Origin: Burkholderiales bacterium
Lineage (GTDB): Bacteria; Pseudomonadota; Gammaproteobacteria; Burkholderiales; Casimicrobiaceae
NCBI GenBank assembly: GCA_038239945.1
Contig: JBBSEG010000001.1
Coordinates: 9,836-73,835 of the forward strand
Length of the DNA: 64,000 nt
Direction: 5' to 3'
Shown piece by piece: positions 9,342 to 25,750 of the stretch (its first letter is position 1; the number at the start of each line of letters is the position of its first letter). The notes under the pieces are model-generated. The model was not told the origin of the DNA. It worked only from the letters and a program-made list of their open reading frames with translations, and did no database searches. Both the position numbers and the translations under genes were made by a program.

Positions 9342-11179
9342 CTCGACTGCGCGGCGGACTGCGCGGCGCAATCAGCGGCGTCGTCCCGGCGGCGTTGTGC
9401 GCGCTGCTCGTTGCTGCGTGGCCCGAGGGGCGCGCAGCCGACGGTCCCGCGGACGCGCCGCACGTCGTGCGCGTGGAGTTACGGGTCGCCGAGAGCGGCT
9501 TCGATCCGCAGGCGGCGTCGGACACGTTCTCGTTCCAGGTGATCGACGCCATCTTCGATCCCCCGTACACCTACGATTATTTCGCCCGGCCGGTCCGGCT
9601 CATTCCGCGCACCGCCGCGGGCCTGCCCGAGATCACCGACGACGGCCGCACGTACACAGTGCGGATTCGCCCGGGCATCTATTACGCCGACGATCCGGCG
9701 TTCAGGGGCCGCCGCCGCGAGCTCGTCGCGCAGGACTACGTCTACTCGATCCAGCGCATGCTCGATCCGAAGGTGCGCTCCTACTGGCTCTACCTGTTCG
9801 AGCGGCACCTGACGGGCCTCGAGCCGGTGCTCGCACAGGCGCGCAAAACGGGCGCACTCGACTACGCGGCGCCGATCGCGGGCCTTGCCGTCGTCGACCG
9901 CTACACGTTTCGCGTGCGCTTCGACGAGCCCGACTTCGCGTTCCAGCATTGGCTGACGACCTCGCAGTTCGGCGCGGTGGCGCGCGAGGTCGTCGAGGCC
10001 AACGGCGACGACAGCCGCCGCGTCGCCGAGCATCCGGTGGGGACCGGCGCGTATCGGCTCGGCGCGTGGACGCGGGCCCAGAAGATCGTGCTCGAGGCCA
10101 ATCCCGGCTATCGCGAGGAGCGCTACCCGGCGCCCCCGCCAGGCGATGCGCCGGCACAGGCCGCGGCCGCCGGTCTCGTGGGCCGGCGCCTGCCGCTGGC
10201 CGCAACCATCGAGATCAGCGTGCTCGAGGAGGCCCAGCCCCGCGTGCTATCGTTCGAGCGCGGCGCGCTCGACCTGCTCGAGCTCCCCGCCTCGCTCGCC
10301 GGCAACGTGCTCGACGGCGCTGTGCTCAAGCCGGTCTACGCCGCCCGCGGGGTGCGGCTGCATCGGCAGGTGGATCCGGCGATCAGCTTCAACTTCTTCA
10401 ACCTCGACGATCCCGTGGTGGGCGGGTACGCGCCGGCCAAGCTGGCGCTGCGCCGCGCGATCGGCATGGGCTACGATCGCGCCGCCGCCATTCGCACGTT
10501 GCAGAACGGCCAGGCGCTGCCCGCGTCCCAGCCGCTGCCGCCGGGCGTGCCCGGCTACGACGCGACGCTCGCCCCCGCAGCCTACGACCCCGCCGGGGCG
10601 CGCGCGCTCTTGGACCGGTTCGGGTACCGCGACCTCGACGGCGACGGCTATCGCGAGACGCCCGACGGCAAGCCACTCACCATCGTGCGCGCCTCCACCC
10701 CGGATGCCGCAGCGCGCGCCGCCGACGAGCTGTGGAAGCGCTGCATGGACGCCATCGGCATCCGGATGGTCGACTTCAAGCAGAAGTGGCCGGAGCTCAA
10801 CAAGATGTCGGAGGCCGGCCAGCTGATGATGTGGGGGCTGGCGTGGATCACGTCGATCCCCGACGCGGACACGTTCTTCAGCACGCTGTACGGCCGCAAC
10901 ATCGGCACCTCGAACGACGCGCGCTTTCGCCTGCCCGAGTACGACCGGGCGTTCGAGGAGGCGCGGCGCCTGCCGGACTCGACCGCGCGTACGGCGCTCT
11001 ACAAGCGCATGACCGCGCTGGTCGCCGCCTACTCGCCATGGCTCCTGCAAACCTACTCGTACGACAACGTGCTCGCGCAACCGTGGGTGCGCGGCTACTA
11101 CCAGCATCCCTTCCTGCGCGGACAGTTTCGCTTCTACGATGTCGATCGCACCAACGCCGCGCCGGCCGGAGCGCGCTGA
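9338..11179 (+). CDS. ABC transporter substrate-binding protein, family 5
   Basis: ATGA overlap with the aminotransferase stop; signal-like N-terminus; ELVAQDYVYSIQR, PVGTGAYRL, LRRAIGMGYDR, ARALLDRFGY motifs. Confidence 0.88.
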   Translation: MTRLRGGLRGAISGVVPAALCALLVAAWPEGRAADGPADAPHVVRVELRVAESGFDPQAASDTFSFQVIDAIFDPPYTYDYFARPVRLIPRTAAGLPEITDDGRTYTVRIRPGIYYADDPAFRGRRRELVAQDYVYSIQRMLDPKVRSYWLYLFERHLTGLEPVLAQARKTGALDYAAPIAGLAVVDRYTFRVRFDEPDFAFQHWLTTSQFGAVAREVVEANGDDSRRVAEHPVGTGAYRLGAWTRAQKIVLEANPGYREERYPAPPPGDAPAQAAAAGLVGRRLPLAATIEISVLEEAQPRVLSFERGALDLLELPASLAGNVLDGAVLKPVYAARGVRLHRQVDPAISFNFFNLDDPVVGGYAPAKLALRRAIGMGYDRAAAIRTLQNGQALPASQPLPPGVPGYDATLAPAAYDPAGARALLDRFGYRDLDGDGYRETPDGKPLTIVRASTPDAAARAADELWKRCMDAIGIRMVDFKQKWPELNKMSEAGQLMMWGLAWITSIPDADTFFSTLYGRNIGTSNDARFRLPEYDRAFEEARRLPDSTARTALYKRMTALVAAYSPWLLQTYSYDNVLAQPWVRGYYQHPFLRGQFRFYDVDRTNAAPAGAR

Positions 11180-11826
11180 TGCTCGCAGGCTGGGTGATCG
11201 TGTGCGGAATCCTGGCGGGCGCGTTCGCCCTGCGCGCCGTCAACCGCGGGCGGCGCCGGCATCCCTTCGCGGCCGCGCTGCACGGTACGCTCGCGGCGTT
11301 CTGGCTGGTCCTCGCGGTGGCGGCGGCGCTGATCGGCATCGACCTGCGCAGCTACGCGCGCCTGACCAACGAGACCCCGGCCGCCGAGGTGCGCTTTCGG
11401 CAGGAGGGCGAGCGGCGCTTCGCGGCCGAGGTGATGTATCCCGAGGGGGGCAGCGAGTCGTTCGCCCTGGCGGGGGACGAATGGCAGCTCGACGCGCGCG
11501 TGCTGAAGTGGCACGGCGCCGCCCTGGTGCTGGGACTCGACCCGTCGTTCCGCCTGGACCGCATCGGCGGACGCTATCGCGACATCGAGCAGGAGCGCAG
11601 CGCCCCGCGCACCGTGCACGAGCTCGCACGTCCGGACGGCGTCGACGTGTGGAGCATCGCACAACGCTTTCACGCGTGGCTGCCCTTCGTCGACGCCGTG
11701 TACGGCAGCGCGACGTTCCTGCCGATGGCCGACGGCGCGCACTACGCGGTGAGCGTCGCGCCCACCGGCCTCCTGGCCCGGCCGCTGAACGGACCCGCCC
11801 GCCAGGCCGTCTCCGCCTGGCATTAG
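11179..11826 (+). CDS. Conserved hypothetical membrane-anchored protein
   Basis: TGATG overlap; two N-terminal TM helices, then a soluble domain (GDEWQLDARVLKW...VDAVYGSATFLPMADGA). Confidence 0.7.
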   Translation: MLAGWVIVCGILAGAFALRAVNRGRRRHPFAAALHGTLAAFWLVLAVAAALIGIDLRSYARLTNETPAAEVRFRQEGERRFAAEVMYPEGGSESFALAGDEWQLDARVLKWHGAALVLGLDPSFRLDRIGGRYRDIEQERSAPRTVHELARPDGVDVWSIAQRFHAWLPFVDAVYGSATFLPMADGAHYAVSVAPTGLLARPLNGPARQAVSAWH

Positions 11827-11994
11827 GGCGGCTGCTTCCCGCCCGGCTCAGCGACGCTCCGCGGCACGGCTCTTGCACAGGAGGTGGCCCTTGCCCTGCG
11901 GTGACCGGCAGCGCGAGCGGCCCCCGCGTAATCCTTACCAGGCGGGCGTGTAGATAACGCGCGCCGCCCGACATCCGCGTTCTCCGGAGTCCCC

Positions 11995-13323
11995 ATGCCT
12001 CGAGCAGCGCTTAGCCCGTCGGTCCTGTGGTCGATGACCAAGGAATGCGCCACCGCGTGGATCGACGACTTTGCGCCGAGCATGGGCGCGGCCATTGCGT
12101 ACTACACGGCGTTCTCGATCGCGCCGCTCCTCGTGATCGTCATCGCGGTCGCCGGCCTGTTCCTCGGCCGCGACGCGGCGAGCGGCCAGCTCTACACCGA
12201 GCTCGGCGGACTGATCGGCGACGATGGAGCCACGGCCATCCAGGGCCTGGTCAAGAGCGCGAGCAACACCGGCGACGGCATTGTCGCGACCATCATCGGC
12301 GTGGTGCTGCTCATCGTCGGCGGAACGACGGTGTTCGCGGAGCTGCAGACCGACCTCGACCGGATCTGGAAGGCGCCCGCGGTGAAGCAGGTGGAAGGCA
12401 TCTGGGGGCTCATCCGCAGCCGCCTGCTGTCGCTCGGCCTGGTCGTGAGCATCGGCTTCCTGCTGCTGGTCTCGCTCGTGATCAGCGCGTCGCTCGCCGC
12501 CCTTGGCCTGCTGTGGGGCGGCTTCTTCGCCGATTTCGAATGGCTGCTGCAAATCATCAATTTCCTGGTGGGCCTGGCGGTCGTCACCGCCATGTTTGCG
12601 CTGATGTACAAGATCCTGCCGCGCGTGAAGATCGCCTGGCTCGACGTTTGGGTCGGCGCAGCGTTCACGGCGGTGCTGTTCGCAGTCGGCAAGCTGCTGG
12701 TGGGCCTCTATCTGGGCAAGAGCGGCGTGGTGTCCGGCTTCGGCGCGGCCGGCTCGCTCGCCGTGCTGCTGCTGTGGGTGTACTACTCCGCGCAGATCTT
12801 CCTGTTCGGCGCGGAATTCACCTGGGTGTATGCCCACCGCTTCGGCTCGCGGGTCGGCCAGGACATGCCCGCGACCGCCAAGGAGCAGGCCGCCACCGCA
12901 CCGTTCTACTCCGGCGACGCCCCGCCGCGCCCGGACGACTCGCTAAACGCGACGACGCCCCGCAGCACGCCCGACCCCGCGCTCTATGCCCGGCAGAACC
13001 GGTTGCTCGGCTGGCCGCGCAGCGCCAACGACGAAACCGCGCGAAGCGGGGGCAGCTCCGCCGGCCGAGTTGCCGCTGGCGCGACCGGCCGTGCGCCCGC
13101 GCGGGGCGTGCTGGGCCTCGCCCGGCGACACCCCGGCCTCATGACCGGGGCGGCGCTCCTGCTCGGTGCATTGACGAGCGAGCTCCTGGCCCGCCGCGGC
13201 GGGCGGGGCGGCGAAAGGCCGCGCCCGATCGACGCTCTGGCGCGCGAATTGGCGGGGCTCCGCCACCTCGTCGCAACGCGCTTGAGCCGCTCGAAGCTGG
13301 TGCGCTTCCTCGACCGCCGCTAG
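11995..13323 (+). CDS. YihY/virulence factor BrkB family protein with long C-terminal extension
   Basis: GAAIAYYTAFSIAPLL, LQTDLDRIW, YGAAGS-like FGAAGSLAVLLLWVYYSAQIFLFGAE. Confidence 0.9.
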   Translation: MPRAALSPSVLWSMTKECATAWIDDFAPSMGAAIAYYTAFSIAPLLVIVIAVAGLFLGRDAASGQLYTELGGLIGDDGATAIQGLVKSASNTGDGIVATIIGVVLLIVGGTTVFAELQTDLDRIWKAPAVKQVEGIWGLIRSRLLSLGLVVSIGFLLLVSLVISASLAALGLLWGGFFADFEWLLQIINFLVGLAVVTAMFALMYKILPRVKIAWLDVWVGAAFTAVLFAVGKLLVGLYLGKSGVVSGFGAAGSLAVLLLWVYYSAQIFLFGAEFTWVYAHRFGSRVGQDMPATAKEQAATAPFYSGDAPPRPDDSLNATTPRSTPDPALYARQNRLLGWPRSANDETARSGGSSAGRVAAGATGRAPARGVLGLARRHPGLMTGAALLLGALTSELLARRGGRGGERPRPIDALARELAGLRHLVATRLSRSKLVRFLDRR

Positions 13324-13339: not shown

Positions 13340-13813
13340 TCACCCGCCGGCGCGGTGGATGTCGTCCACCCACTGCACGGCCTCGGGGTTGGGCTCGACG
13401 TTCGGCAGGTCGAGGTTGACCACCACCGGCTCCTGGCCGCTGCGCACCAGCACGCACGTCAGCGGCGCCGCGTCGCTGGCGTTGATCTCCTGGTGCGGCA
13501 CGTACGGCGGCACGAAGATGAAATCGCCCGGGCCCGCCTCCGCCACGAACTCCAGCCGGTCGCCCCAGCGCATGCGCGCCCGGCCGCTGACGACGTAGAT
13601 CACGCTTTCGACCGCGCCATGATGATGCGTGCCGGTCCTGGCCCTGGGGTGGATCACGACGGTCCCCGCCCAGAGCTTCTCCGCGCCGGCCCGTGCCGCC
13701 GTGATCGCGGCCGCGCGATCCATGCCGGGCGTCTGCGCCGTGTTGGGATCGAGCTCCCCGGCGCGCACGACGCGCACGCCGTGATGTTTCCATTTCGAGC
13801 CCGCTGCATTCAT
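13340..13813 (-). CDS. Cupin domain protein
   Basis: HHHGAVESVIYVVSG and GDFIFVPPYVPHQE cupin motifs. Confidence 0.85.
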   Translation of the reverse strand: MNAAGSKWKHHGVRVVRAGELDPNTAQTPGMDRAAAITAARAGAEKLWAGTVVIHPRARTGTHHHGAVESVIYVVSGRARMRWGDRLEFVAEAGPGDFIFVPPYVPHQEINASDAAPLTCVLVRSGQEPVVVNLDLPNVEPNPEAVQWVDDIHRAGG

Positions 13814-14014
13814 CGCCGTTTCCTCATGCGGGGAACCGCCCGCCCTACGGTGCCCGCCGCGCGCCAGGAGGCCGGCCCGGCGGTCGCCCCGAAACGCGCG
13901 GGTGCGCCGCCGTCCGCGAGCCTACCGCACCGCGCGAACGGCGTCCCATCCCGGGCCGCTTCGATCCGCCGGGGCCGGCCTTGTATCATCGCCGGCTCTA
14001 TGGAGGGAACGCTC

Positions 14015-15202
14015 ATGGATCCAAGGCAGGTGGTGCTGCTCGGCGGCGTGCGGACGGCGATCGGCGACTACGGCGGAACGCTCAAGGACCACGCGCCCAC
14101 GATGCTGGCCGCGACCGTCGTGCGCGAAGCGCTCGCTCGCACCAAAGTGGACCCGGCCGCGATCGGGCAATGCGTCTTCGGGAGCGTGATCCACACCGAG
14201 CCCAAGGACATGTACATGGCCCGCGTCGCCGCGATCGAGGGCGGGCTGCCCGTGGGGAGCGGCGCGCTGACGCTGAACCGCCTGTGCGGCAGCGGCCTGC
14301 AGGCCGTGATCAGCGCGGCGCAGTACATCATGCTGGGCGACGTTGACGCGGCGATCGGCGGCGGTGCCGAAAGCATGAGCCGCGCGTCGTACATCGACCC
14401 CGCGCAGCGCTGGGGTGCGCGGATGGGCGACACCAAGATGGTGGACATGATGGCGGGCGCATTGTCCGACCCGTTCGAGTCGATGCACATGGGCGTGACC
14501 GCCGAGAACGTGGCGAAGCAATGCGGCATATCGCGCGAGCAACAGGACGCCTTCGCGGTCGAGAGCCATCGGCGCGCGACGGCAGCGGCCGCAGCGGGTC
14601 ATTTCAGGAGCCAGATCGTGCCGCTCGAGATCAAGTCGCGCAAAGGTACGGTGCAGTTCGACACCGACGAGCACGTGCGCGCGGACGCGACCCTCGACGG
14701 GATGGCCAAGCTGAAGGCGGTGTTCGCCAAGGAGAACGGCACCGTCACGGCCGGCAACGCGTCCGGGCTCAACGACGCCGCCGCTGCCATCGTGCTGATG
14801 GAGGAAGGCGCCGCGCGTCGCCAGGGCCTCGTGCCCATGGCGCGGCTCGTCGCGTACGGGCACGCCGGCGTGGAGCCGCGCATCATGGGGCTCGGCCCGG
14901 TCACGGCCGTGAAGAACGCGCTCGCGAAGGCACGTCTTTCGCTTGCGGACATGGACGTCATCGAATCCAACGAAGCATTCGCGGCGCAGGCGCTCGGCGT
15001 GAACCAGGAGCTCGGGCTCGACGCCGCCAAAGTCAATCCGAACGGCGGCGCCGTGGCGCTCGGACATCCCATCGGCGCCACGGGCTGCATCCTCACTGTC
15101 AAGGCCATGTACGAATTACAACGCACGGGCAAGCGTTACGCGCTCATCACCATGTGCATCGGCGGCGGCCAGGGCATCGCCGCGATCATCGAGCGCGCCT
15201 GA
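14015..15202 (+). CDS. bktB: Beta-ketothiolase (BktB type)
   Basis: LNRLCGSG Cys, HMGVTAENVA, NEAFA, GHPIGATG, TMCIGGGQG; GGAGG RBS and TATCAT -10-like element upstream. Confidence 0.88.
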   Translation: MDPRQVVLLGGVRTAIGDYGGTLKDHAPTMLAATVVREALARTKVDPAAIGQCVFGSVIHTEPKDMYMARVAAIEGGLPVGSGALTLNRLCGSGLQAVISAAQYIMLGDVDAAIGGGAESMSRASYIDPAQRWGARMGDTKMVDMMAGALSDPFESMHMGVTAENVAKQCGISREQQDAFAVESHRRATAAAAAGHFRSQIVPLEIKSRKGTVQFDTDEHVRADATLDGMAKLKAVFAKENGTVTAGNASGLNDAAAAIVLMEEGAARRQGLVPMARLVAYGHAGVEPRIMGLGPVTAVKNALAKARLSLADMDVIESNEAFAAQALGVNQELGLDAAKVNPNGGAVALGHPIGATGCILTVKAMYELQRTGKRYALITMCIGGGQGIAAIIERA

Positions 15203-15263: not shown

Positions 15264-15887
15264 ATGCACGACCTGCCGCTCCTCGTCGTCGCGCTCACCG
15301 TGTCGCTGTACTGGATCGGCGTCGGCGCAATGATCGTGCGCGTGCGGCGCCACCTGCGCACGGACGCCGGCCTGGTCCCGGAGCAGGCCCGCGAGCGGTT
15401 GATGTGGCTGGTGTGGGTGCCGCTCGTGGCGGCGTGGATCGCGCTGCCGTGGCTCGCCCAATCCCGCACGGACGCGATCCTGGCGCTGCCCGCTTTCGCG
15501 CACGACGATGCGGTGGCGCGGGCGCTGCGCGGCGCGGCCGCGCTGGTCGCAGTCGGCTGCCTGCTCGCCACGGCGCGTTGCTGGGTGCGGATGGGCGACG
15601 ATTGGCGGATGGACGTAAGCTCGCGCAGCGCGGCGCTCATCACCGACGGGCCGTTCCGGCGCATCCGGCATCCGATCTACGCGTTCAGCATCCTGCTCAT
15701 GCTGTGCTCGGCGGTCGTGCTGCCCACGGTGCCGATGCTCGCCATCGCTGCGATACACGTGCTGCTGATGAATCTCAAGGCGCGCAACGAGGAGGCCCAC
15801 CTGTCCGCGGTGCACGGCGAGGCCTATGCGCGCTACGCGGCGCGAACCGGGCGATTCGTGCCCCGGCTCACGCCGCGTGAGCATTGA
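15264..15887 (+). CDS. Isoprenylcysteine carboxyl methyltransferase/PEMT-family membrane methyltransferase
   Basis: Multiple TM helices; LITDGPFRRIRHPIY and NEEAHL...YARY motifs. Confidence 0.85.
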   Translation: MHDLPLLVVALTVSLYWIGVGAMIVRVRRHLRTDAGLVPEQARERLMWLVWVPLVAAWIALPWLAQSRTDAILALPAFAHDDAVARALRGAAALVAVGCLLATARCWVRMGDDWRMDVSSRSAALITDGPFRRIRHPIYAFSILLMLCSAVVLPTVPMLAIAAIHVLLMNLKARNEEAHLSAVHGEAYARYAARTGRFVPRLTPREH

Positions 15888-16857
15888 TCGAGCAACGCGG
15901 CTCGGCCTCGCGCTGGCGCTCGCGGCGTGCGCCGCCACGTCCGCAACTCGCGCCGCGCCCGGCGGAAGCGATACGCCGGCCGCGCGCGCCGTCGTCCTGG
16001 ACCTGCACTGCGATGCGCTGGACACCGGGCCAGCGCGCGCCGCGCTCGCGCAGGCCCCCGCCCCGCGGCTGATCCTGCTGCAGGGCGCGCTGCCGTTCGT
16101 CCCGATGGATTCGCTCGCGCGGTTCCTGGTCGACATGGGGTATCCCGAGGCGCGCATCCGCGACCCGCGCGACGGCGCGCTCACCGCCAGCGGCTATCTC
16201 GACAGCGTCAAGCTGGCCGGGATCGTCGCCTGGCACTACGAGCACGACGGCATGCCGCCGATCCTGGTGGGACACAGTCGCGGCGGCATGGTGGTCGTGC
16301 GCACGCTGCACGAGCTGGCAGGCGCGTTCCGGTCCGCGGTGGCGGTCTGGGATCCGGTGGCGGACGCGCCGCTTGATCGCACCACCATTGTCGATCCGCA
16401 CACCGGCTCCGCGCGTCCCGTCGTCGGGCTCGCCGTGCGGTACGCGGCCGCGCTCGCGACCGGCACGCTCCCGCGCATCCTCGCCGGCGAGTGGGCGATG
16501 GCCGGGCTCCTGCACGACATCCCGGACAGCGTGCGCGATTTCACTGGCTACCAGATCGACGCCGACCTGATCGCCGACGGCATCCTGCCGCGCGCGCCCT
16601 ACGTGGGGCGGTCGCGCGCCAACGTGCGCAACGTGACGCTGCCAGCTCGCACCGGGCATCTCGACGCGGTCCGGCTCGAGCACCTCGCCGCGAACCCGGA
16701 CGCGCGTGCGTACATCGAGTCCTACCGTCCGGAGACCGACGCCGCGGGGGCGCCCCCGGCGATGCGCAACGTCCTCCAGGCGGCGGACCTGTGGCACGGC
16801 ATCCGGCGCGCGTGGTGCGAGGAAGCGCAGGAGTGGGCTGCGCCGCGCGACTCATGA
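15877..16857 (+). CDS. Exported alpha/beta-hydrolase-like protein (paralog A)
   Basis: Signal peptide (RLGLALALAACAA); nucleophile elbow GHSRGG at 16270-16287; clearly paralogous to 18134-19234. Confidence 0.75.
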   Translation: MSIDRATRLGLALALAACAATSATRAAPGGSDTPAARAVVLDLHCDALDTGPARAALAQAPAPRLILLQGALPFVPMDSLARFLVDMGYPEARIRDPRDGALTASGYLDSVKLAGIVAWHYEHDGMPPILVGHSRGGMVVVRTLHELAGAFRSAVAVWDPVADAPLDRTTIVDPHTGSARPVVGLAVRYAAALATGTLPRILAGEWAMAGLLHDIPDSVRDFTGYQIDADLIADGILPRAPYVGRSRANVRNVTLPARTGHLDAVRLEHLAANPDARAYIESYRPETDAAGAPPAMRNVLQAADLWHGIRRAWCEEAQEWAAPRDS

Positions 16858-18137
16858 GAGGCGCGCTCAACCTGTTCCAGTCGAACATGCTGCGCTGGCG
16901 CGCGATGCATCCGTACAACGCCGTGCATGCGGTCGAGGTCGACCGGCACATGCCGCGCGCGGACATCGAGTCGGCCATCGCGGCCACGCTCGAGCACTGG
17001 GGCCTCACCGGCCTCGCGCTCGACGGGCGGCGCGGCCGCTACGAGTATCGCGGCGGGCCGGCGCGCAGCGTGCTCACCGTCGTCGCGGGGGCGCGCATGC
17101 TGGACACGCTCGAGGCGGAGATCGAGCGGCAGCTCAACACGCCCTTCGAAGCCGACGGCGCGCTCGACCCGTTCCGATTCTTCCTGGCGAGCGGCGCCGA
17201 CGGCACGATGCTGGGGCTCGCCTACGATCACTTCATCGCCGCGGGCGATTCCATCGTGGAGCTGCTGCAGTCGATCGTCGCGCGTTGCGCTGGCGAAGAG
17301 GGGCACGCCGCCGCGCCGCTGCTCTACCCGCCACGCCAGGGCCGGCTGTACCGCACCCACTGGCGGCGCGCGCTGGCGGGGCTCGGCCGGGTCCCGGCGC
17401 AGGTCCGCAACGCCCGGCGGACGGCGCGGCCACGCTACGGCGACGCGATGGACGGCCATAACGGCTATCGCCTGTACCTGCTGCCCGCGGACGCATCTCA
17501 GCGCCTGCCGGCCTGCGCGAAAGCATGGTCGGTGACCGTCAACGACGTGCTGCTGGCGCTCCTGCTGCTGGCGCTCGACCCGCTGGTGCCGCAGCGGCGC
17601 GGCGCGCGCCAGCGCGTCGCCATCGGCGTCGCCTCGATCATGAACCTGCGCTCGGAGTTCGGCGCGCCGGGCCGCGCGGCGTTCGGGCAATTCCTCGGCT
17701 CCTTGCGGGTCGCGCACCCGGTGCCCGACGGCATCGGTCTCGAGCGCCTGTCGCGCGACGTGCATGCCGAGACGGAACAGGTCAAGCGGGAGAAGCTCTA
17801 TCTCCAGACGCTGATCGCGATGCGTTGGGTGAAGGCCATCTGGCCGCTGCTCGACCCGGCGCAGCGCGCCGGCTTCTATGCGAAGACCTATCCCCTCCAC
17901 GCCGGACTGTCCGCGATGAACCTCAACGCGCTGTGGCGCCGGTCCGACCCGGCCAAGCCCCTGCCGGTGTACATCCGCGGCGTGCCGACGGGTCCGCTCG
18001 CGCCGCTCGTCGTGGCGTTCACCACCGTCGGCGAGCGCTTCTACGCCGGCATCTCCTATCGCACCGCCGCGTTCGATCGCGACGACGTCGACCACCTCTG
18101 GACCGGCCTCACTCGCCGGCTGACCACGCTCCCATGA
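16854..18137 (+). CDS. Standalone condensation-domain/CAT-fold acyltransferase-like protein
   Basis: ATGA overlaps at both ends; QLNTPF, FRFFL, LGLAYDHFIAAGDS (HHxxxDG-like), TVNDVLLALL, GISYRTAAF pattern. Confidence 0.7.
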   Translation: MRGALNLFQSNMLRWRAMHPYNAVHAVEVDRHMPRADIESAIAATLEHWGLTGLALDGRRGRYEYRGGPARSVLTVVAGARMLDTLEAEIERQLNTPFEADGALDPFRFFLASGADGTMLGLAYDHFIAAGDSIVELLQSIVARCAGEEGHAAAPLLYPPRQGRLYRTHWRRALAGLGRVPAQVRNARRTARPRYGDAMDGHNGYRLYLLPADASQRLPACAKAWSVTVNDVLLALLLLALDPLVPQRRGARQRVAIGVASIMNLRSEFGAPGRAAFGQFLGSLRVAHPVPDGIGLERLSRDVHAETEQVKREKLYLQTLIAMRWVKAIWPLLDPAQRAGFYAKTYPLHAGLSAMNLNALWRRSDPAKPLPVYIRGVPTGPLAPLVVAFTTVGERFYAGISYRTAAFDRDDVDHLWTGLTRRLTTLP

Positions 18138-19234
18138 AGAATCCGACCCGTCGCACCGTCCTCGTAGCCGCGCTCGCGCTCCTGCTCGCGCAGGGCTGCG
18201 CCATCGTCCCGCCCAGCCCATCGGTTCAGGACGAGCCGCGCGCCGGCGCCGTGTTCGCGCGGCTGGCGCTCGATCGCGATGCCGAGGACCGCATCCTCGC
18301 AATCGACCCGCTGCACGTGACGGAGGCGGACGTCCGCGGTCCGCTCGCGAACGCTCCGGCGCCGCGCGTAATGCTGCTGCACGGCGGGATCTATCCCGTG
18401 CACCTGATCATGATCTCGTTCGGGCATTTCCTGGTGGGCATGGGCTACCCCGAAGCCGCCATCCGCGACCCGGGCACCCGCGCATGGTCGTACAGCCCGT
18501 ACGAGCAGGGCGCGCACCTGACCGGCCTCCTCGCGTGGCAATACGAGCACGACGGCATGCGCCCGATGATGGTCGGGCACAGCCAGGGCGGCATGCAGGC
18601 GATCAAGGTGCTGCAGCAGCTCGACGGGCGCTTCGGCAACGAGATCGCGGTGGTCAATCCGTGGACCCAGGCGGCGGAAGCCCGCACCACCATCGTCGAT
18701 CCCCTCACGGGGCGCACACGACCGGTGCTCGGGTTGTCGGCCGCGTACGCGTCGGTGGTCGGCGCAGGCGGCGCGGCCTACCTGCTCCCGAACCAGTGGG
18801 ACATGATCGGCAAGCTGCGCCAGATTCCCGATACGGTCGGCGAGTTCACCGGCTTCTTCATCGCGATCGATCTCATCGCGTGGAATTTCCCCGGCATCAA
18901 CGAGCAGGAAGTGTTCCGCGGAGTCGGCACGGCGCAGGTGCGCAACCTCGAGCTGCCGGCCACCTACAGCCACGTCCTGCTGCCGGCGGTCCAGGAGCTC
19001 GCGAAGGACCCGGACACGCGGGCGCGGCTCAACGCGTATGCGCCGGGCAAGGCGGGCGAAGGCGGTCTCGAGGACGATCGGCTCACCGGCGCGCTTTGGG
19101 CCGCGGACGTCTGGTACAGCATCAAGAAGAATTGGGTGATCGAGCTTCAGCGGCTGATCCGCGCCAAGCGCGCCGCGGGCTCCGCCGGAGCCGGAGCGCC
19201 CAATAGCGTACAGGCGCCGGCGCCGCCGGTCTGA
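18134..19234 (+). CDS. Lipoprotein, alpha/beta-hydrolase-like (paralog B)
   Basis: Lipobox AQG-C after a basic/hydrophobic signal; GHSQGG with Ser at 18581; shares MGYPEAxIRDP, AWxYEHDGMxP and TTIVDPxTG with paralog A. Confidence 0.78.
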   Translation: MKNPTRRTVLVAALALLLAQGCAIVPPSPSVQDEPRAGAVFARLALDRDAEDRILAIDPLHVTEADVRGPLANAPAPRVMLLHGGIYPVHLIMISFGHFLVGMGYPEAAIRDPGTRAWSYSPYEQGAHLTGLLAWQYEHDGMRPMMVGHSQGGMQAIKVLQQLDGRFGNEIAVVNPWTQAAEARTTIVDPLTGRTRPVLGLSAAYASVVGAGGAAYLLPNQWDMIGKLRQIPDTVGEFTGFFIAIDLIAWNFPGINEQEVFRGVGTAQVRNLELPATYSHVLLPAVQELAKDPDTRARLNAYAPGKAGEGGLEDDRLTGALWAADVWYSIKKNWVIELQRLIRAKRAAGSAGAGAPNSVQAPAPPV

Positions 19235-19306
19235 AGCGAGGTGGTCGCGGCGTGCGGAACGCACGCATGAGACCGCCCGTTGGCAGGGCGCGCCCGGACC
19301 ACCGGT

Positions 19307-19312
19307 TAGAAT
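19307..19312 (+). promoter_or_regulatory. Putative internal -10 element (TAGAAT) before the FabL-like gene
   Basis: TAGAAT in the 142-bp gap; the same hexamer occurs upstream of several other genes in the window. Confidence 0.5.
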
Positions 19313-19376
19313 GGCGCTCCGACGCCGCTCACCGCCCGCGGGCCCCAGTAGAGGCCGGCCCGCGCTGCTCCCGACC

Positions 19377-20153
19377 GTGCAATCCGACGCAACGTGCAAC
19401 GACCTGCCGCTTGGCGGCAAGCTCGCGCTGGTCACCGGCGCGGCCCGCGGCATCGGTCGCGCCATCGCGATGAAGCTCGCGACGCGCGGCGCGGATGTCG
19501 TCGTCAACTACTACAACAGCGCCGACGAGGCGGAGGCGCTGTGCGGCGAGATTCGCGCGCTCGGCCGGCGCGCCCTGGCGGTGCAGGCGAGCGTCGGGAT
19601 GCCGGATAGCGTGGACGAGTTGTTCGAAGCGCTCCGGAAGGAATTCGACCGGCTCGACATCGTGGTGAGCAATGCCGCCTCCGGCGTGCTCAAGCCGACG
19701 CTCGAGATGGGTCTCAAGCATTGGCGCTGGTGCATGGAGACCAACGCGCTGGCGATCGGCCTCCTCGCGCAGCGCGCGGTGCCAATGATGCGCGACGGCG
19801 GGCGGATCATCGCGATGTCGTCGCTGGGCGCGCAGCGCGCGATGCCCAATTACGGCTTCGTCGGCGCGTCGAAGGCCGCCCTGGAGGCGCTGGTGCGCGC
19901 GCTCGCGCAGGAGCTCGGTCCGCGCGGCATCCGCGTCAATACCGTCAGCGCGGGCGTCGTGGACACCGACGCGCTCGCCTATTTCCCCAATCGCGACGAG
20001 GTGCTCGCGAACTTCGCGCAGCGCACGCCGGCCGGTCCCACGCTCACGCCGCAGGCAGTGGCCGACGCGGTGTACCTGCTCTGCCTTCCCGAGGCCGCGA
20101 TGATCAACGGCCACACGCTGGTCGTCGACGGCGGCTTCGCCATCTCCGGCTGA
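19377..20153 (+). CDS. fabL: SDR oxidoreductase, FabL-like enoyl-ACP reductase
   Basis: TGAARGIG; VVSNAASGVLKP and NYGFVGASKAALE (YxxxxxxK spacing) as in FabL. Start taken at GTG 19377, downstream of the -10. Confidence 0.72.
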   Translation: MQSDATCNDLPLGGKLALVTGAARGIGRAIAMKLATRGADVVVNYYNSADEAEALCGEIRALGRRALAVQASVGMPDSVDELFEALRKEFDRLDIVVSNAASGVLKPTLEMGLKHWRWCMETNALAIGLLAQRAVPMMRDGGRIIAMSSLGAQRAMPNYGFVGASKAALEALVRALAQELGPRGIRVNTVSAGVVDTDALAYFPNRDEVLANFAQRTPAGPTLTPQAVADAVYLLCLPEAAMINGHTLVVDGGFAISG

Positions 20154-20159: not shown

Positions 20160-20918
20160 ATGGACGTCGATCCTGGCCTCGCGGGCAAGACGGTGATCGT
20201 GACCGGCGGCAGCCGCGGCATCGGCCGGGCCATCGTCCTGCGCTTCGCCGCCGAAGGCTCCGACGTGACGTTCTTCTACCGCGGCAATGCCGCCGCCGCC
20301 GGCGCGGTGACCGATGCGGCCGCGGCCGCGGGGCGCGCGGTGGCCGCCGCGCAGGTGGACGTGACGGACGCGGCGGCCTGCGCCGCCGCGGTCGAGCGCG
20401 TCGCCGAGCGCACCGGCCGCGTCGACGTGCTCGTGAACAACGCCGGCGTCATCCGCGACAACCAGCTCGCCGCGATGTCCGACGAGGACGTAAGCATGGT
20501 GCTCGACACCAACGTTGGCGGCGTATTCAACATGGCGCGCGCCGTGGTGCCGCACATGATCGTGCAACGCGCCGGACGGATCGTGAACCTGAGCTCGGTC
20601 GCCGCGGAAAAGGGCGGGCGCGGCCAGACCAACTACGCGGCGAGCAAGGGCGCGATCAACGCGTTCACGCGCTCGCTCGCGGTCGAGCTCGCGCCGCGGC
20701 GCATCACCGTCAACGCAGTGGCGCCGGGCGTGATCGAGACGGAGATGTCGCAGGACGTGCGCGACATGGCCGGCGACGAAGTGAAGAACCGGATCCTGCT
20801 GAAGCGCTACGGCAAGCCGGAAGAGGTCGCGTACGCCGTGTGGTTCCTGGCGTCCGACTACGCGAGCTACGTGACGGGACAGGTGTTCCACGTCGACGGC
20901 GGCTTCAAGATGGCATGA
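20160..20918 (+). CDS. fabG: 3-oxoacyl-ACP reductase
   Basis: TGGSRGIG, NNAG, NLSS, NYAASKG, VTGQVFHVDGG. Confidence 0.88.
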   Translation: MDVDPGLAGKTVIVTGGSRGIGRAIVLRFAAEGSDVTFFYRGNAAAAGAVTDAAAAAGRAVAAAQVDVTDAAACAAAVERVAERTGRVDVLVNNAGVIRDNQLAAMSDEDVSMVLDTNVGGVFNMARAVVPHMIVQRAGRIVNLSSVAAEKGGRGQTNYAASKGAINAFTRSLAVELAPRRITVNAVAPGVIETEMSQDVRDMAGDEVKNRILLKRYGKPEEVAYAVWFLASDYASYVTGQVFHVDGGFKMA

Positions 20919-20933: not shown

Positions 20934-21362
20934 ATGGCTGAGCAACCGATCACCCAGGCGCAGATCGACGCCGTATATCCGAAGGTCGCCGAGACGATGG
21001 CCGACGCGCTCGGCGCCGACCTCGAGGACATCAAGCCCAAGGTGTCGCTCATCGAGGGCCTCGATGCCGAGTCCATCGATTTCCTCGACATGGTGTTTCG
21101 CCTCGAGCGCGCGTTCAAGATCAAGATCCCGCGCGGCAAGATCGTCGAGAACGCGCGCGGCGACCTGCCCGAGGAGGAGTTCGAGCAGAAGGGCATCGTC
21201 ACCGAGAGGGGCCTCGTGCAGCTGCGCGAGTATTTGTCCGAGGTGCCGGCCGAGCGCTTCAAGACCCCGCTGAAGGCGGCCGAAATCCCGCGCCTCTTCA
21301 CACCCGAGACGTTCTGCAAGCTGGTGATCCGCGCGCAGCGCGAGGCGCCGGCGCCGGCGTGA
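20934..21362 (+). CDS. Oversized acyl carrier protein (142 aa)
   Basis: Acidic; LDAESIDFLDMVFRLERAFKIKI with Ppant Ser at 21072; GGAG RBS. Confidence 0.85.
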   Translation: MAEQPITQAQIDAVYPKVAETMADALGADLEDIKPKVSLIEGLDAESIDFLDMVFRLERAFKIKIPRGKIVENARGDLPEEEFEQKGIVTERGLVQLREYLSEVPAERFKTPLKAAEIPRLFTPETFCKLVIRAQREAPAPA

Positions 21363-21387: not shown

Positions 21388-22230
21388 GTGCCTTCGGCCG
21401 ATCACTTCGCCGCGTACTCGTTCGTCGACCGCATCGACCGGTTCGAGCCGGGGCGCGTAGCCACCGCGCGCTTCGCCGTGCCGCGCGAGGTGGCGCGCTT
21501 TCCGGCGTGCCTGGTCGCCGAGGCGGTCGGCCAGCTCGCGGCGTGGGTGTCGATGGACCGCATCGACTTCCGCGGCCGGCCCGTCGCTGCGCTCGCGAGC
21601 CAGACGCGCATCCTGGGCGATGCGCGTCCAGGCGACGTGCTCGAGCTCGCCGTGACCGTGGACCAGTGCGACGACGAGGCGGTCGCGTACGGTGGGTCCG
21701 CCCATGCGCACGGCGCGCCGCTGGTCGAGCTCGTCGATTGCCTCGGACCGATGCTCCCGGTCGCCGAGTTCGACGCGCCAGAGGAGCTGCGCGCGCGGCT
21801 TGCCGTGCTGCGCGGCCCGGGCGCCGTGCCGGGACGGTTTCGCGGCGTCCCGTCGCCGGCCGTAACGATGCTCGAACGGGTCGCAGGCGTGTCCCTGCGC
21901 GCGCGCCTCGACGTGCCGGCCAGCGCGGCGTTCTTCAACGATCATTTCCCGCGCCGGCCGGTGTTCCCGGCGACGCTGCTGCTCGACACGCAGATCGCGC
22001 ACACGCTCCTGCTCGCCCGCGACGCGGCGTGGGCCGCCGGACGCACGGTGACGGCCGCCAAGGTCACCCACGTGAAGATGCGCTCGTTCATCCACCCCGG
22101 CCAGGCGCTCGATCTCGCCCTCGACGTGGCCGTGCCGGTGGACGGCGTTGCGAAAGCGACGATGCAGGCGCGTTGCGACGCTCGCGTGGTCGCCGGTGCG
22201 CGCCTCGAGATGGAGGTGACCGATGCGTGA
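21388..22230 (+). CDS. Tandem hotdog-fold (FabZ/FabA-like) dehydratase
   Basis: Domain 1 FVDRI...FPACLVAEAVGQ; domain 2 FFNDHFPRRPVFPATLLLD. Confidence 0.8.
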   Translation: MPSADHFAAYSFVDRIDRFEPGRVATARFAVPREVARFPACLVAEAVGQLAAWVSMDRIDFRGRPVAALASQTRILGDARPGDVLELAVTVDQCDDEAVAYGGSAHAHGAPLVELVDCLGPMLPVAEFDAPEELRARLAVLRGPGAVPGRFRGVPSPAVTMLERVAGVSLRARLDVPASAAFFNDHFPRRPVFPATLLLDTQIAHTLLLARDAAWAAGRTVTAAKVTHVKMRSFIHPGQALDLALDVAVPVDGVAKATMQARCDARVVAGARLEMEVTDA

Positions 22231-23515
22231 GCGCCGCCGGGTCGCGATCACGGGCGTGGGGGTGGTCACGCCGGTCGGCAACGACGCGCCGGCCACGTGG
22301 CGGGCGGTGCTCGATGGGCAGAGCGGCGCCGCGCCCATCTCGCTGTTCGACGCGAGCGGCTTCTCCACGCGCATCGCCGCGGAGGTGAAGGGCTTCGACT
22401 CGCGCGTGCTCACCGCCGAGCGCAAGCTCGTGAAGTTCGCCAACCGGTCGCATCGCTTCGCGCTCGCCGCGGCCGAGCAGGCGATGGCCGACGCGGGCAT
22501 CGCGCCCACCCCCGGCGACGCCGAGCGCTGGGGTTGCGCGGTCGGCACGGGGATGATGGGGGTCGACTTCGACGATCTCACGGCGGTGCACCGGCATTCG
22601 GCGCGCGGCGGCGAGCTCGACCCGCAGCGCATGGTCGACGACCCGGCCGCCACCGATCCGCTGGTTTTCTGCCGCAGCCAGGCGACGGCGGGCGTGGCTC
22701 TGCTCACGCGCCGGTTCGGCATCCGCGGATATTCCACGTCGGTGCACACCGCGTGCGCGTCGGGAGGCCAGGCCATCGGCACCGCCCTGAAGCTGATCCG
22801 GCGCGGCGCGGTCGACCGCGCGCTCGCGGGCGGCTTCGACTCGATGATCAGTCCGGCCGGGCTCGCCGGGTTCTGCCTGCTCTCGGCGGTGTCGGCCGAC
22901 AACGACGACCCGACGCATGCGAGCCGCCCGTTCGACGCGAATCGCAACGGCTTCGTGCTCGGCGAGGGCGCAGGCTTCCTGGTGCTCGAGGAATGGCAGG
23001 CGGCGAAGGCGCGCGGCGCGCGCGTCTACGCGGAGCTGGCCGGCGACGGCAATTCGCTGTCGTCGTATCGCATCACCGACTCGCCCCCCAACGGCGACGG
23101 TCCGATCCAGTCGATGCTGGCCGCCCTCCGCGACGCCGGCGCGTCGATCGGCGACGTCGACTACATCAACGCGCACGGCACGTCCACGCCGATGAACGAC
23201 CGCAGCGAAAGCGCCGCGATCCACGCGGTGTTCGGCGCGCGCACCGCCGATGTGAGCGTCAGCTCCACCAAGAGCACGATGGGTCACCTGATCGCCGCCG
23301 CGGGCGCCGTCGAGGTGGTGATCTGCGCCATGGCGATCCGCCACGGCGAGCTGCCGGTCAACGCGAACTTCGTCGATCGCGATCCGGACTGCGATCTCAA
23401 CCTGGTGCTCGCGCCGCGCCGGCAGGCCGTCGGCATGACGCTCTCCAATTCCTTTGGCTTCGGCGGCTCGAACAGCTGCGTGGCGCTGCGGCATCCGGAC
23501 GCCGTGGCAGCGTGA
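22223..23515 (+). CDS. fabF: Beta-ketoacyl-ACP synthase II (intact Cys-His-His)
   Basis: TACASG (Cys 22754), YINAHGTST, KSTMGHLIAAAG, GFVLGEGAG, SNSFGFGG. Confidence 0.92.
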   Translation: MRERRRVAITGVGVVTPVGNDAPATWRAVLDGQSGAAPISLFDASGFSTRIAAEVKGFDSRVLTAERKLVKFANRSHRFALAAAEQAMADAGIAPTPGDAERWGCAVGTGMMGVDFDDLTAVHRHSARGGELDPQRMVDDPAATDPLVFCRSQATAGVALLTRRFGIRGYSTSVHTACASGGQAIGTALKLIRRGAVDRALAGGFDSMISPAGLAGFCLLSAVSADNDDPTHASRPFDANRNGFVLGEGAGFLVLEEWQAAKARGARVYAELAGDGNSLSSYRITDSPPNGDGPIQSMLAALRDAGASIGDVDYINAHGTSTPMNDRSESAAIHAVFGARTADVSVSSTKSTMGHLIAAAGAVEVVICAMAIRHGELPVNANFVDRDPDCDLNLVLAPRRQAVGMTLSNSFGFGGSNSCVALRHPDAVAA

Positions 23516-24819
23516 CGGCACCCGCGATGCGCGAGCGCATCCTGATCACCGGCGCCGGGGCGGTATGCGCATCGGGCATGGATCCCGCCGCCATCTTAGC
23601 TGCCGTGCGCCGCGGGGAGTCGGCGATCGGACCCATCCGCGGCTGGGATACGACCGGCTGGCCGATCCGGTCCGCGGCCGAGATGCCGACTTTCGACGCG
23701 CGCGCGCTGGTGGACGATCGCAAACTGCACAAGTTCATCCGCCGCACCGACTTCTTCGGCATCTATGCGGGCGATCGCGCGGTCGCGGAAGCGGGCTTCA
23801 CAGCGTTCCGCTCCGGCCTTGCCGCCGACGCCGCCGCGCACTTCAACGACCGCACGGGCGTGTACGTCGGCTCCGGCGGCGGCGCATTCGCGAACATGTA
23901 CGACTACTTTCCGCTGATGACGGAATCCGGCGGCGCGATGCCCGCCTTCGGCGCCGAGCTTGGGAATGTCGTCAATCCGATGTGGCTCCTGCGCACGTTG
24001 CCCAACAACGTGCTCTGCCACGTCGGCATCCGCAACGAGCTCAAGGGTGCCAACGCCTGCATAACCAACCATAGCTGCGGCGGCGCGATGGCCGTCATCG
24101 AGGCCGCCGAGGCGCTGCGCACCGGCGAGGCGGACCGCGCCGTCGCCATCGGGCACGACACGCCCATCGAGCCGCAGATGGTCCTCTTCTACCACCGCTG
24201 CGGGCTCCTCGGCCGCGACACGCTGCGGCCGTTCGACGCGCACCGCGACGGCAGCGTGTTCGGCGAAGGCGCCGCCGCGCTGGCGCTCGAGACCGCGACC
24301 GCCGCGGCGGCGCGCGGCGCCCGCGCGATGGGCGAGGTGCTGGGCGGCGGCTCGGCTGCCGAAGCGGAAGGACTTCTGTCGATCCGTGCCGACGGCGATG
24401 GCGTCGAGCGGGCGATCCGCGCAGCACTTGCCGACGCCGGCGTAGCACCCGCCGACGTGGGCATGATCGTCGCGCACGGCAACGGGACGCGGCTGTCCGA
24501 CGCCAGCGAGGCGGCCGCGCTCCTGAGGGTCTTCGGCCCGGACGGTCCGCCGGTCACCGCCTTCAAGTGGGTCTTCGGCCACCTGATCGCCGCGGCGGGC
24601 ATCGTGGAAACCGTCGTGGCGCTCGCCGCGCTGCGCGCAGGCGTCGTGCCGGGCATCGCGACCTTGCGCGCGCTCGACCCGGCTTGCGCCGGCCTGGCGG
24701 TGTCTTCGCAGGACCAAGTGCCGCGCACCGACGTCGCGCTGATCGTGTCCCGGGGCTTCGCCGGGACGGACACCGCGCTGCTCGTGCGAGCCGGCGCGCG
24801 CGATCCCGGCGTAAGCTAG
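23512..24819 (+). CDS. Ketosynthase-like protein with catalytic Cys replaced by Ser (chain-length-factor-like)
   Basis: GTGA overlap; KS fold (GSVFGEGAA, VAHGNGT, KWVFGHLIAAAG); TNHSCGG aligns with HTACASG. Confidence 0.85.
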   Translation: MTAPAMRERILITGAGAVCASGMDPAAILAAVRRGESAIGPIRGWDTTGWPIRSAAEMPTFDARALVDDRKLHKFIRRTDFFGIYAGDRAVAEAGFTAFRSGLAADAAAHFNDRTGVYVGSGGGAFANMYDYFPLMTESGGAMPAFGAELGNVVNPMWLLRTLPNNVLCHVGIRNELKGANACITNHSCGGAMAVIEAAEALRTGEADRAVAIGHDTPIEPQMVLFYHRCGLLGRDTLRPFDAHRDGSVFGEGAAALALETATAAAARGARAMGEVLGGGSAAEAEGLLSIRADGDGVERAIRAALADAGVAPADVGMIVAHGNGTRLSDASEAAALLRVFGPDGPPVTAFKWVFGHLIAAAGIVETVVALAALRAGVVPGIATLRALDPACAGLAVSSQDQVPRTDVALIVSRGFAGTDTALLVRAGARDPGVS

Positions 24820-24832
24820 CGAGCTCCCGGCC

Positions 24833-25750
24833 ATGCTCGAAACCCTGCTCGCACCGCGCTTCATCGTGCTGTACGCGTTCATCGCGTCGGCCGTGTACAT
24901 CCACTATCGCGGCCGCGTGCGCCACGGCTTCCTGCGCCAGCTGACCGACCATTCGTCGCTGATGGCGCCCTACAACACGCTCATGTACCTGTTCTCGGCG
25001 GTGCCGAACCGCCCGTATGTGGAGGTCGACCGGTTTCCCGAGCTCGCCCCGCTGCGCGACAACTGGCAGGTGATCCGCGACGAGGCGCTGTCGCTGTTCG
25101 ACGAAGGGCACATCCGCGCGGCGGCGACGTACAACGACCTCGGCTTCAACTCGTTCTTCAAGACCGGCTGGAAGCGCTTCTACGTGAAGTGGTACGACGA
25201 GCCGGTGCCGTCGGCGCGTGCGCTGTGCCCGCGCACGGTGGCGCTGGTGCAGTCGATCGGCACCGTGAACGCGGCGATGTTCGCGCTGCTGCCGCCGGGC
25301 AGCAAGCTCGGGGCGCACCGCGATCCCTTCGCCGGGTCGCTGCGCTATCACCTCGGGCTCGTCACGCCGAACAACGACACGTGCCGCATCGTCGTCGACG
25401 GGCAACCGTACTTCTGGCGGGATGGCGAGCCGGTCATGTTCGACGAGACCTTCATCCACACCGCCGAGAATCGCAGCGACGTCACGCGGCTCATCCTGTT
25501 CTGCGACGTCGAGCGCCCGCTCACGCTGCGCCCGATGCAGTGGCTGAACCACCTGATCGAGATGACGGTGATCCGCGCCAGCCAGACCGAGAACGTGCCG
25601 GGGGACGGCGTAGGCCTGCTCAATCACCTCTTCAACGGCGTGTACCGCGTCCGCCTGATCGGCAAGTGGATCAAGAGCAAGAGCCACTTCGCGCACTACA
25701 CGCTGAAGTGGCTGCTGATCGGCGGGCTGCTCTACCTGATCTTCCGCTAG
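24833..25750 (+). CDS. lpxO: LpxO-like Fe(II)/2-oxoglutarate acyl-chain hydroxylase
   Basis: N- and C-terminal TM helices; DLGFNSFFKTGWKRFYVKWY, HRD and DETFIHTA iron-binding motifs. Confidence 0.85.
   Translation: MLETLLAPRFIVLYAFIASAVYIHYRGRVRHGFLRQLTDHSSLMAPYNTLMYLFSAVPNRPYVEVDRFPELAPLRDNWQVIRDEALSLFDEGHIRAAATYNDLGFNSFFKTGWKRFYVKWYDEPVPSARALCPRTVALVQSIGTVNAAMFALLPPGSKLGAHRDPFAGSLRYHLGLVTPNNDTCRIVVDGQPYFWRDGEPVMFDETFIHTAENRSDVTRLILFCDVERPLTLRPMQWLNHLIEMTVIRASQTENVPGDGVGLLNHLFNGVYRVRLIGKWIKSKSHFAHYTLKWLLIGGLLYLIFR

Follow-up and report, generated by a model that had tools for sequence, protein, structure and literature searches.

A stand-alone condensation-fold protein with a variant active-site motif in a predicted envelope-lipid operon of Casimicrobiaceae

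Condensation-fold (C-fold) enzymes are known to take part in the biosynthesis of natural products, both peptides and polyketides, and of the envelope lipids of mycobacteria. The locus described here raises the question of what such an enzyme does when it is encoded beside a private fatty acid synthase (FAS) and lipopolysaccharide (LPS) genes, in a genome without a non-ribosomal peptide synthetase (NRPS). The DNA analysed (hereafter the window) is a 64-kb stretch of contig JBBSEG010000001.1 from a Burkholderiales bacterium of the Casimicrobiaceae, with a G+C content of 71%. On its plus strand, positions 16854–18137 form an open reading frame (ORF) with a stop-free translation of 427 aa, protein P0001, identified as a stand-alone C-fold protein from its translation, a fold model and a profile of its homologues. 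An earlier note on this DNA had given these coordinates and drawn attention to an unusual motif, D-H-F-I-A-A-G-D, at 17226–17249; on re-reading of the bases both were found to be correct. The gene is a real and conserved feature, encoding an enzyme of a known kind in an unexpected pathway context, and its chemistry is a matter of prediction.

The C-fold protein and its active site

Homologues of P0001 have lengths of 426–430 aa, and analysis of G+C at third codon positions (GC3) gave a plus-strand coding frame that is unbroken over ~16850–18137. A longer ORF starting at 16491 was ruled out as the true gene by the same analysis. The start codon overlaps the stop of an upstream hydrolase gene (hydrolase A) within the ATGA at 16854–16857, and the stop overlaps the ATG of a downstream hydrolase gene (hydrolase B) at 18134–18137. 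Given these overlaps on both sides, the genes for hydrolase A, the C-fold protein and hydrolase B are translationally coupled. No signal peptide was found in P0001, which is a cytoplasmic, stand-alone enzyme of the condensation-domain, or chloramphenicol acetyltransferase-like (CAT-like), superfamily.

An AlphaFold2 (AF2) model of P0001 (pLDDT 91) fits the two-lobe, pseudo-dimeric CAT-like fold, and the best Foldseek and VIA matches were all C-family proteins, aligned across residues 1–427. These structure matches bear out the condensation-like fold that had been claimed for the protein from its sequence. The X-domain of glycopeptide systems appears among the Foldseek matches, and the nearest solved structure is AzeD (PDB 8S6L), at 16% identity. 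A single-sequence phmmer search of P0001 against PDB sequences gave no match at E ≤ 10. The profile of its family gave marginal C-domain and WSD matches only, the sole WS/DGAT one being 7nxg with an E value of 0.3, and failed to retrieve the 8S6L sequence from the PDB at E ≤ 10. The structural closeness of P0001 to AzeD is a lead, rather than a family assignment.

Placement within the superfamily was approached through curated models. P0001 scored 18.7 bits with Pfam Condensation (PF00668; gathering threshold 30.6), 18.5 bits with PapA_C (PF16911; cut-off 30) and 15.7 bits with NF006787 (cut-off 396). The NCBIfam WS/DGAT model TIGR02946 gave 30.1 bits against a cut-off of 309.95 (E 2e-7), with only residues 217–346 aligned, a match that is explained by a T-x-N-D block conserved where the C-terminal lobe begins. 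Among 44 family members, weak Condensation matches were present in 36 (best E 3.4e-10) and weak PapA_C matches in 31. P0001 belongs to the condensation/CAT-like superfamily by its fold and its catalytic His; it was filed in none of Condensation, PapA or WS/DGAT because it falls below their curated thresholds and its signature is without the first His and the Asp.

A word-indexed search returned more than 1000 relatives, all unnamed and nearly all from metagenome-assembled genomes of Casimicrobiaceae and other Betaproteobacteria or from soil or sediment metagenomes. An exhaustive profile search gave 1399 clusters (50% identity) at E ≤ 0.001, with 474 at E ≤ 1e-30. The records of distant relatives were uninformative, all being metagenomic and one carrying the name ‘NRPS condensation-like uncharacterized protein’. 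Within 44 family sequences 42 columns are invariant, several Arg and Lys included, and P0001 retains every family-invariant residue. No fused forms of the C-fold protein longer than 749 aa were found.

The motif itself is encoded by gat cac ttc atc gcc gcg ggc gat (17226–17249, plus strand), which translates to D-H-F-I-A-A-G-D where the canonical signature reads H-H-x-x-x-D-G. In a profile alignment of 44 homologues, Y-D-H-f-v-a-g-G-d-S aligns with F-H-H-S-I-L-D-G-W-S of the McyA C domain. From this alignment D125 occupies the first His position, H126 that of the catalytic His, A130 that of the canonical Asp and G131 that of the Gly; H126 aligns with the second (catalytic) His of the bacitracin synthetase C domains as well. 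Both the first His and the structural Asp are replaced in P0001, the former by D125 and the latter by A130 (Gly in most relatives). The catalytic His had been described as kept, and His126 is indeed invariant in 219 of 219 family sequences aligning across the motif. Its neighbouring residues and a C5-like GQF block are also invariant.

In a comparison of 220 full-length relatives, the Casimicrobiaceae-type clade has the consensus Y-D-H-[FV]-[IV]-A-[GA]-G-D-[SC]; about 150 relatives from Casimicrobiaceae-type Betaproteobacteria carry Y-D-H-[FV]-[IV]-A-[GA]-G-D. This clade conserves the absence of Asp at position 130, together with D125, G131 and D132, and none of its members carries the canonical DG. 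At position 130 Gly is ~4 times commoner than Ala, which occurs in about one fifth of the sequences. The substitution emphasised by the earlier note thus stands in part: the loss of Asp is common to the clade, but Ala is its minority state and Gly the usual one. Drift or a sequencing error as the source of Ala130 was rejected, given that Ala recurs in about one fifth of the relatives, and so is not unique to this genome, and that the canonical DG is missing throughout the Casimicrobiaceae-type members.

Farther relatives (30–40% identity) mostly read Y-F-H-P-[IV]-A-D-A-E-S, with the canonical Asp retained. In a phylogeny from which the motif columns had been left out, the Asp at position 130 was gained or lost at least 10 times, the His never changed and the gene context remained constant. 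The earlier note had suggested possibly altered chemistry, with which a dehydratase as nearest solved structure would agree, but such repeated change in a constant context argues that the canonical Asp is dispensable in the C-fold family. Compensatory coupling between D125 and loss of D130 was unsupported, with only 3–4 independent contrasts and a sign test that was not significant. The acidic residue at position 132 was also considered as a shifted Asp and rejected, since D or E at 132 is found in Asp-keeping relatives too; this residue is ancestral.

Cassette, linkage and distribution

P0001 is encoded within a cassette of four genes that heads a FAS operon. A polytopic membrane methyltransferase of 207 aa, ICMT/PEMT-like, is encoded at 15264–15887 on the plus strand (Pfam PEMT 3.7e-9, ICMT 5e-6; NCBIfam isoprenylcysteine O-methyltransferase 2e-15, under cut-off). 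The hydrolases on either side of the C-fold gene are translated as exported lipoprotein α/β hydrolases: hydrolase A at 15877–16857 (plus strand; GHSRGG, lipobox LAAC), which starts at either 15826 (ATG) or 15877 (GTG), and hydrolase B at 18134–19234 (plus strand; GHSQGG, lipobox LAQGC). The two are 43% identical to each other and have an esterase/thioesterase-like fold in which Ser, Asp and His are invariant.

No AMP-binding domain is present within the window, the genome's AMP-binding matches all lying elsewhere, and the 98%-complete genome holds no further Pfam Condensation match. The sole carrier protein in the window is an acyl carrier protein (ACP) encoded at 20934–21362. With no second Condensation match, no AMP-binding domain in the window and a FAS-type ACP as the only local carrier, the genome is taken to be without NRPS. 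The earlier note had seen neither an adenylation domain nor a peptidyl carrier protein in the window, and this was borne out; in place of an NRPS partner, the dedicated ACP lies 2.8 kb downstream of the C-fold gene in the same operon.

Linkage was counted in loci with enough flanking sequence; these loci are mutually related, and the counts therefore describe conservation and not independent trials. Of 74 Casimicrobiaceae-type loci, 72 have a methyltransferase and a hydrolase together with the C-fold gene, as do all 16 distant loci, even where gene order differs. The FAS set adjoins it in 69 of 78 and 15 of 21 loci, respectively, and an LpxL-type acyltransferase gene is present in 48 of the 49 Casimicrobiaceae-type loci with enough downstream sequence and in 11/11 distant ones. 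In eight congeners and ~70 other Casimicrobiaceae-type loci the order is methyltransferase, hydrolase, C-fold gene, hydrolase, FabL, FabG, ACP, dehydratase, two ketosynthase (KS) genes (KS1 and KS2), phosphopantetheinyl transferase (PPTase) and LpxL-type acyltransferase, often followed by LpxO. Asp-keeping distant relatives show the order C-fold gene, one or two hydrolases and methyltransferase, followed by an unchanged FAS set and the acyltransferase. Wzt also adjoins the cassette in other genomes.

The association extends to a fusion. Protein P0225, a metagenomic sequence of 654 aa found on two contigs, joins a full-length methyltransferase (residues 11–206, 35% identical to that of the window) to a C-fold protein (residues 216–636, 31% identical to P0001) through a linker of ~10 residues. 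Its motif reads Y-Q-H-V-I-G-D-A-S, with the canonical Asp kept. The fusion places the methyltransferase and C-fold activities in one pathway and the C-fold enzyme at the membrane. The C-fold enzymes are predicted to form a functional unit with the ICMT-like methyltransferase of the inner membrane and the exported lipoprotein serine hydrolases, of which there are one or two. Literature searches for the cassette and for lipids of Casimicrobiaceae turned up no relevant papers, and the family and its cassette appear to be undescribed in the literature searched.

Within the GTDB family of this genome the C-fold gene occurs in five of 12 genera, where it is near-fixed (24/24, 23/23, 17/23, 3/3 and 2/2 genomes), and is absent from the other genera (0/24, 0/12 and so on). 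Across 121 genomes of the family, 67 carry both the C-fold and the LpxL-type gene, three the C-fold gene only and 51 neither; an LpxL-type gene without a C-fold gene was found in none. Among 399 genomes sampled from the rest of the class, only one gave a strong C-fold match.

The window departs from its relatives downstream of the KS genes. KS2 ends at 24819 and LpxO begins at 24833, leaving a junction of 13 bp (24820–24832, plus strand) where relatives have genes for a PPTase and an LpxL/LpxXL-type lipid A acyltransferase. Both are present between KS2 and LpxO in G501, the nearest relative, and at the same position a congener locus, L016, has ACPS, Lip_A_acyltrans and LpxO. Either the two genes have been cleanly deleted here or their absence is an artefact of the assembly. 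An orthologue of the LpxL-type gene was not found elsewhere in the 98%-complete genome, and relocation was rejected, the only candidates being an LpxL of the housekeeping type on contig C23 (25% identity) and, on contig C45, an ApeD-like gene. All ten genes of the block are intact despite the missing LpxL-type gene. Relaxed selection following its loss was not evident, the root-to-tip distance of P0001 being 0.59, within the range of its subclade (mean 0.46, maximum 0.67).

With the LpxL-type gene missing, the C-fold protein is, as the assembly stands, the only acyltransferase candidate remaining in the operon of this genome. The earlier note had proposed that the protein catalyses the release or tailoring step that defines the product. 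As a general account this found no support: in the 48 of 49 related loci mentioned above the LpxL-type acyltransferase is the more obvious off-loading enzyme; the loss of that gene makes release more plausible in this genome than elsewhere. A genome with the cassette and the FAS but without the lipid A acyltransferase amounts to a natural experiment that separates the two routes.

Proposed function and alternative readings

We favour the reading that the enzyme uses its His to transfer an acyl group to an envelope lipid, with acyl-ACP or acyl-CoA as the donor, a proposal that we consider evenly balanced. The private type II FAS (FabL, FabG, ACP, dehydratase, KS and KS-like partner) would supply a special acyl chain; in relatives, this set would also feed the LpxL-type lipid A acyltransferase and LpxO. 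His126 would serve as general base or transition-state acceptor, and at the inner membrane, on its cytoplasmic side, the acyl group would move from its thioester (the operon acyl-ACP or an acyl-CoA) to a hydroxyl or amine on an intermediate of an envelope lipid. The enzyme might form a tertiary ester on a hydroxylated long acyl chain, or it might off-load the special acyl chain to an acceptor other than lipid A. The methyltransferase is predicted to act on the same molecule as the C-fold enzyme, and the exported hydrolases may trim the product in the periplasm, after export. A thiolase encoded upstream is compatible with a short hydroxyacyl-CoA donor, though no proof of one. More specifically, and more tentatively, the C-fold enzyme and the ICMT-like methyltransferase may take part in LPS/outer-membrane lipid assembly, with a tertiary ester or amide placed on the private long acyl chain, or that chain off-loaded, via a DHxxxGGD site without the canonical Asp; in this detailed form the proposal is possible, if rather doubtful.

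Among known systems, the closest functional analogy to the proposed reaction is that of PapA5 and other PapA proteins of mycobacteria, stand-alone C-fold enzymes that esterify an envelope lipid alcohol with a carrier-bound long acyl chain. The WS/DGAT enzymes share the superfamily and a His-based O-acylation of lipid alcohols but differ in that no fatty-alcohol-forming reductase is encoded in the P0001 operon. To our knowledge, no enzyme has been assigned to the tertiary acylation of lipid A bearing very-long-chain fatty acids (VLCFA). At the level of the operon, the closest analogue is the VLCFA lipid A cluster of rhizobia, Brucella and Agrobacterium, acpXL-fabZXL-fabF2XL-fabF1XL-adhA2XL-lpxXL, and the rhizobial VLCFA bears a tertiary 3-hydroxybutyrate ester at its (omega-1)-OH (PMC11901934). 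This ester is of the reaction type proposed for P0001, and the two gene sets share a private ACP, a FabZ-like dehydratase and two FabF-like KS, to which the relatives of the window add an LpxL-family acyltransferase. The window operon reaches no NCBIfam equivalog cut-off, which makes it an analogue and not an orthologue. In operons of the P0001 type, FabL, FabG, LpxO, a PPTase and the four-gene cassette are further additions. A C-fold enzyme is absent from the rhizobial cluster, and the LpxL-type gene from the window operon.

Were acyl transfer onto an envelope lipid correct, the protein would represent a new enzyme class for outer-membrane lipid tailoring, and the ‘essential’ Asp of HHxxxDG would be dispensable across a whole lineage. 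On the more detailed and more doubtful proposal, it would be the first enzyme of the C-domain family in Gram-negative envelope lipid biogenesis and would provide a candidate enzyme type for the tertiary acylations of VLCFA lipid A. The branch concerned is large and unnamed (>1000 sequences, ~470 clusters at 50% identity) and is fixed in several genera of uncultured Betaproteobacteria that abound in soil and wastewater. Beside LPS genes, it is tied to a private FAS, to exported lipoproteins resembling esterases and to a membrane methyltransferase.

Several observations weigh against this proposal. P0001 scores under every curated family threshold, and the Asp that it lacks is generally reported to be important in PapA5 and in NRPS C domains. 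AzeD, the closest structure solved, is no acyltransferase but dehydrates a free small molecule. The trio of C-fold, methyltransferase and hydrolase genes is found as well without an adjacent FAS, beside housekeeping genes (L105, L171/172), so the substrate of the C-fold enzyme need not be the product of the operon FAS. The link to lipid A is one of gene neighbourhood, and the biochemistry of the family is a prediction.

The likeness to AzeD suggests the alternative that survives best, namely that P0001 is no acyltransferase and its conserved His serves another reaction of the lipid, during its growth or after its completion, such as dehydration, epimerisation or cyclisation, as in AzeD or C_modAA domains. 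AzeD (PA3329 of Pseudomonas aeruginosa) is a stand-alone dehydratase with the motif PHxxxDG that founded the ‘C_standalone’ clade, and its substrate is a free azabicyclic alkaloid of an NRPS pathway (bioRxiv 10.64898/2026.07.17.738954). P0001 resembles it in being encoded by a stand-alone gene and in structure. However, the identity of 16% and the failure of the family profile to find AzeD, given above, leave no sequence-profile link, and the Z margin may come from lobe opening, not kinship. AzeD keeps the canonical Asp-Gly, which P0001 does not, and the operon of P0001 is of the FAS/LPS type, encodes exported hydrolases besides a membrane methyltransferase and lies in a genome without NRPS. 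In addition, the operon already has a dehydratase, and relatives with a canonical xHxxxD motif lie in the same cassette, so the change of motif is untied to context. Such chemistry is considered unlikely.

A second alternative takes its start from the methyltransferase. The C-fold enzyme would act in release, hydrolysing the acyl-ACP thioester or transferring the acyl group to a small nucleophile, and the resulting carboxylate would be converted by the ICMT-like enzyme to a methyl ester that the exported hydrolases later remove, a masking of the BioC/BioH kind. Enzymes of the ICMT family transfer methyl groups to the carboxylates of substrates bound to the membrane, P0225 joins the methyltransferase to a C-fold enzyme, the hydrolases are esterase/thioesterase-like with their Ser, Asp and His invariant, and this genome retains the FAS and the cassette without the LpxL-type transferase, all of which would agree with such a route. 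The NCBIfam matches of the methyltransferase to isoprenylcysteine methyltransferase and LmtA are, however, far under cut-off, and the label ‘pimeloyl-ACP methyl ester esterase’ on some hydrolase homologues is generic and automatic. This route is judged quite unlikely.

A third possibility, that the enzyme tailors a diffusible secondary metabolite derived from a polyketide or fatty acid and that the LPS neighbourhood is coincidental, appears improbable. The KS/KS-like pair with a private ACP, ketoreductase and dehydratase does resemble a highly reducing type II polyketide synthase, stand-alone C proteins are typical of natural-product clusters, and 3–4 KS genes adjoin the cassette in the distant loci L140, L151 and L161. 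Yet nearly every locus has an LpxL-type lipid A acyltransferase and LpxO after the FAS. In its carrier genera the C-fold gene is close to fixation, which is unusual for accessory natural-product clusters, and the block has no conserved efflux or regulator genes. A non-catalytic scaffold like the glycopeptide X-domain, docking the ACP or the methyltransferase, would suit a canonical motif that is degenerate at three of four signature positions and the X-domain among the Foldseek matches, but is very improbable given that the catalytic His is invariant in 219/219 sequences across clades at 25–40% overall identity and that its surroundings and the GQF block are invariant too.

Remaining genes of the operon and its flanks

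Upstream of the cassette, an acetoacetyl-CoA-type thiolase is encoded immediately before the methyltransferase, at 14015–15202 on the plus strand (Pfam Thiolase_N/C), and occupies this upstream position in about one third of long related loci. A cupin-domain gene at 13340–13921 (minus strand) is divergent from it, an arrangement that likewise recurs in about one third of the long related loci.

The FAS genes all lie on the plus strand. The enoyl-ACP reductase FabL (19311–20153) scores 344 bits with NCBIfam NF005975 against a cut-off of 328 and is followed by a FabG-like 3-oxoacyl-ACP reductase (20160–20918; NCBIfam TIGR01830 1.5e-81, with subfamily NF009466 above cut-off). The dedicated ACP (20934–21362) was identified by Pfam PP-binding and a genome-wide PF00550 scan; at 142 aa it is nearly double the usual size, and PP-binding profiles cover only residues ~12–72. 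A dehydratase of 280 aa, FabZ/FabA-like in its C-terminal half, is encoded at 21388–22230. KS1 (22223–23515) is a FabF-type ketosynthase with an active-site Cys in an HTACASG motif (NCBIfam NF005589 above cut-off). KS2 (~23530–24819, start approximate) is a divergent, chain-length-factor-like KS, 34% identical to KS1, with Ser at the position of the KS1 Cys and a Cys one residue after it; the HG(N/T) and GHLIAAAG blocks are kept. These features suggest that KS1 and KS2 may form a heterodimer like that of a KS and its chain-length factor. In the distant loci L140, L151, L161 and L163, the cassette adjoins another set (3–4 KS genes, ACP, FabG) that replaces the FabL-to-KS2 block.

Beyond the junction, an LpxO-like lipid A acyl-chain hydroxylase is encoded at 24833–25750 on the plus strand (NCBIfam LpxO 1.4e-131, 438 bits against a cut-off of 500; also Pfam). 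A second LpxO paralogue, 59.5% identical to it, lies on contig C45 in a second lipid cluster of the aryl-polyene type (locus L186, ~2400–13300). This cluster contains the ApeD-like gene and comprises LolA_3, Lip_A_acyltrans-like, AMP-binding plus FabA-like, Ketoacyl-synt_2, short-chain dehydrogenase/reductase and family 2 glycosyltransferase (GT2) genes. In the window, Wzm and Wzt follow directly after LpxO (25788–28113, plus strand). The stretch 25788–33044 encodes Wzm, Wzt with a C-terminal carbohydrate-binding domain and then a glycosyltransferase of 1644 aa with methyltransferase, GT2 and WbsX domains. This is an O-antigen ABC-transporter pathway that lies directly after the lipid operon and is apparently co-transcribed with it.

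Comparison with G501 (L187) gave identities of 63% for the C-fold protein, 56% for hydrolase A, 69% for hydrolase B and 76% for the methyltransferase, as against 85% for KS1, 85% for FabL, 88% for the ACP and 89% for LpxO. Between the two genomes the cassette genes evolve faster than the FAS genes. In the congener locus L016, the PPTase, LpxL-type acyltransferase and LpxO lie in one stop-free frame of 743 codons (17163–19394), which may be a fusion or three in-frame genes.

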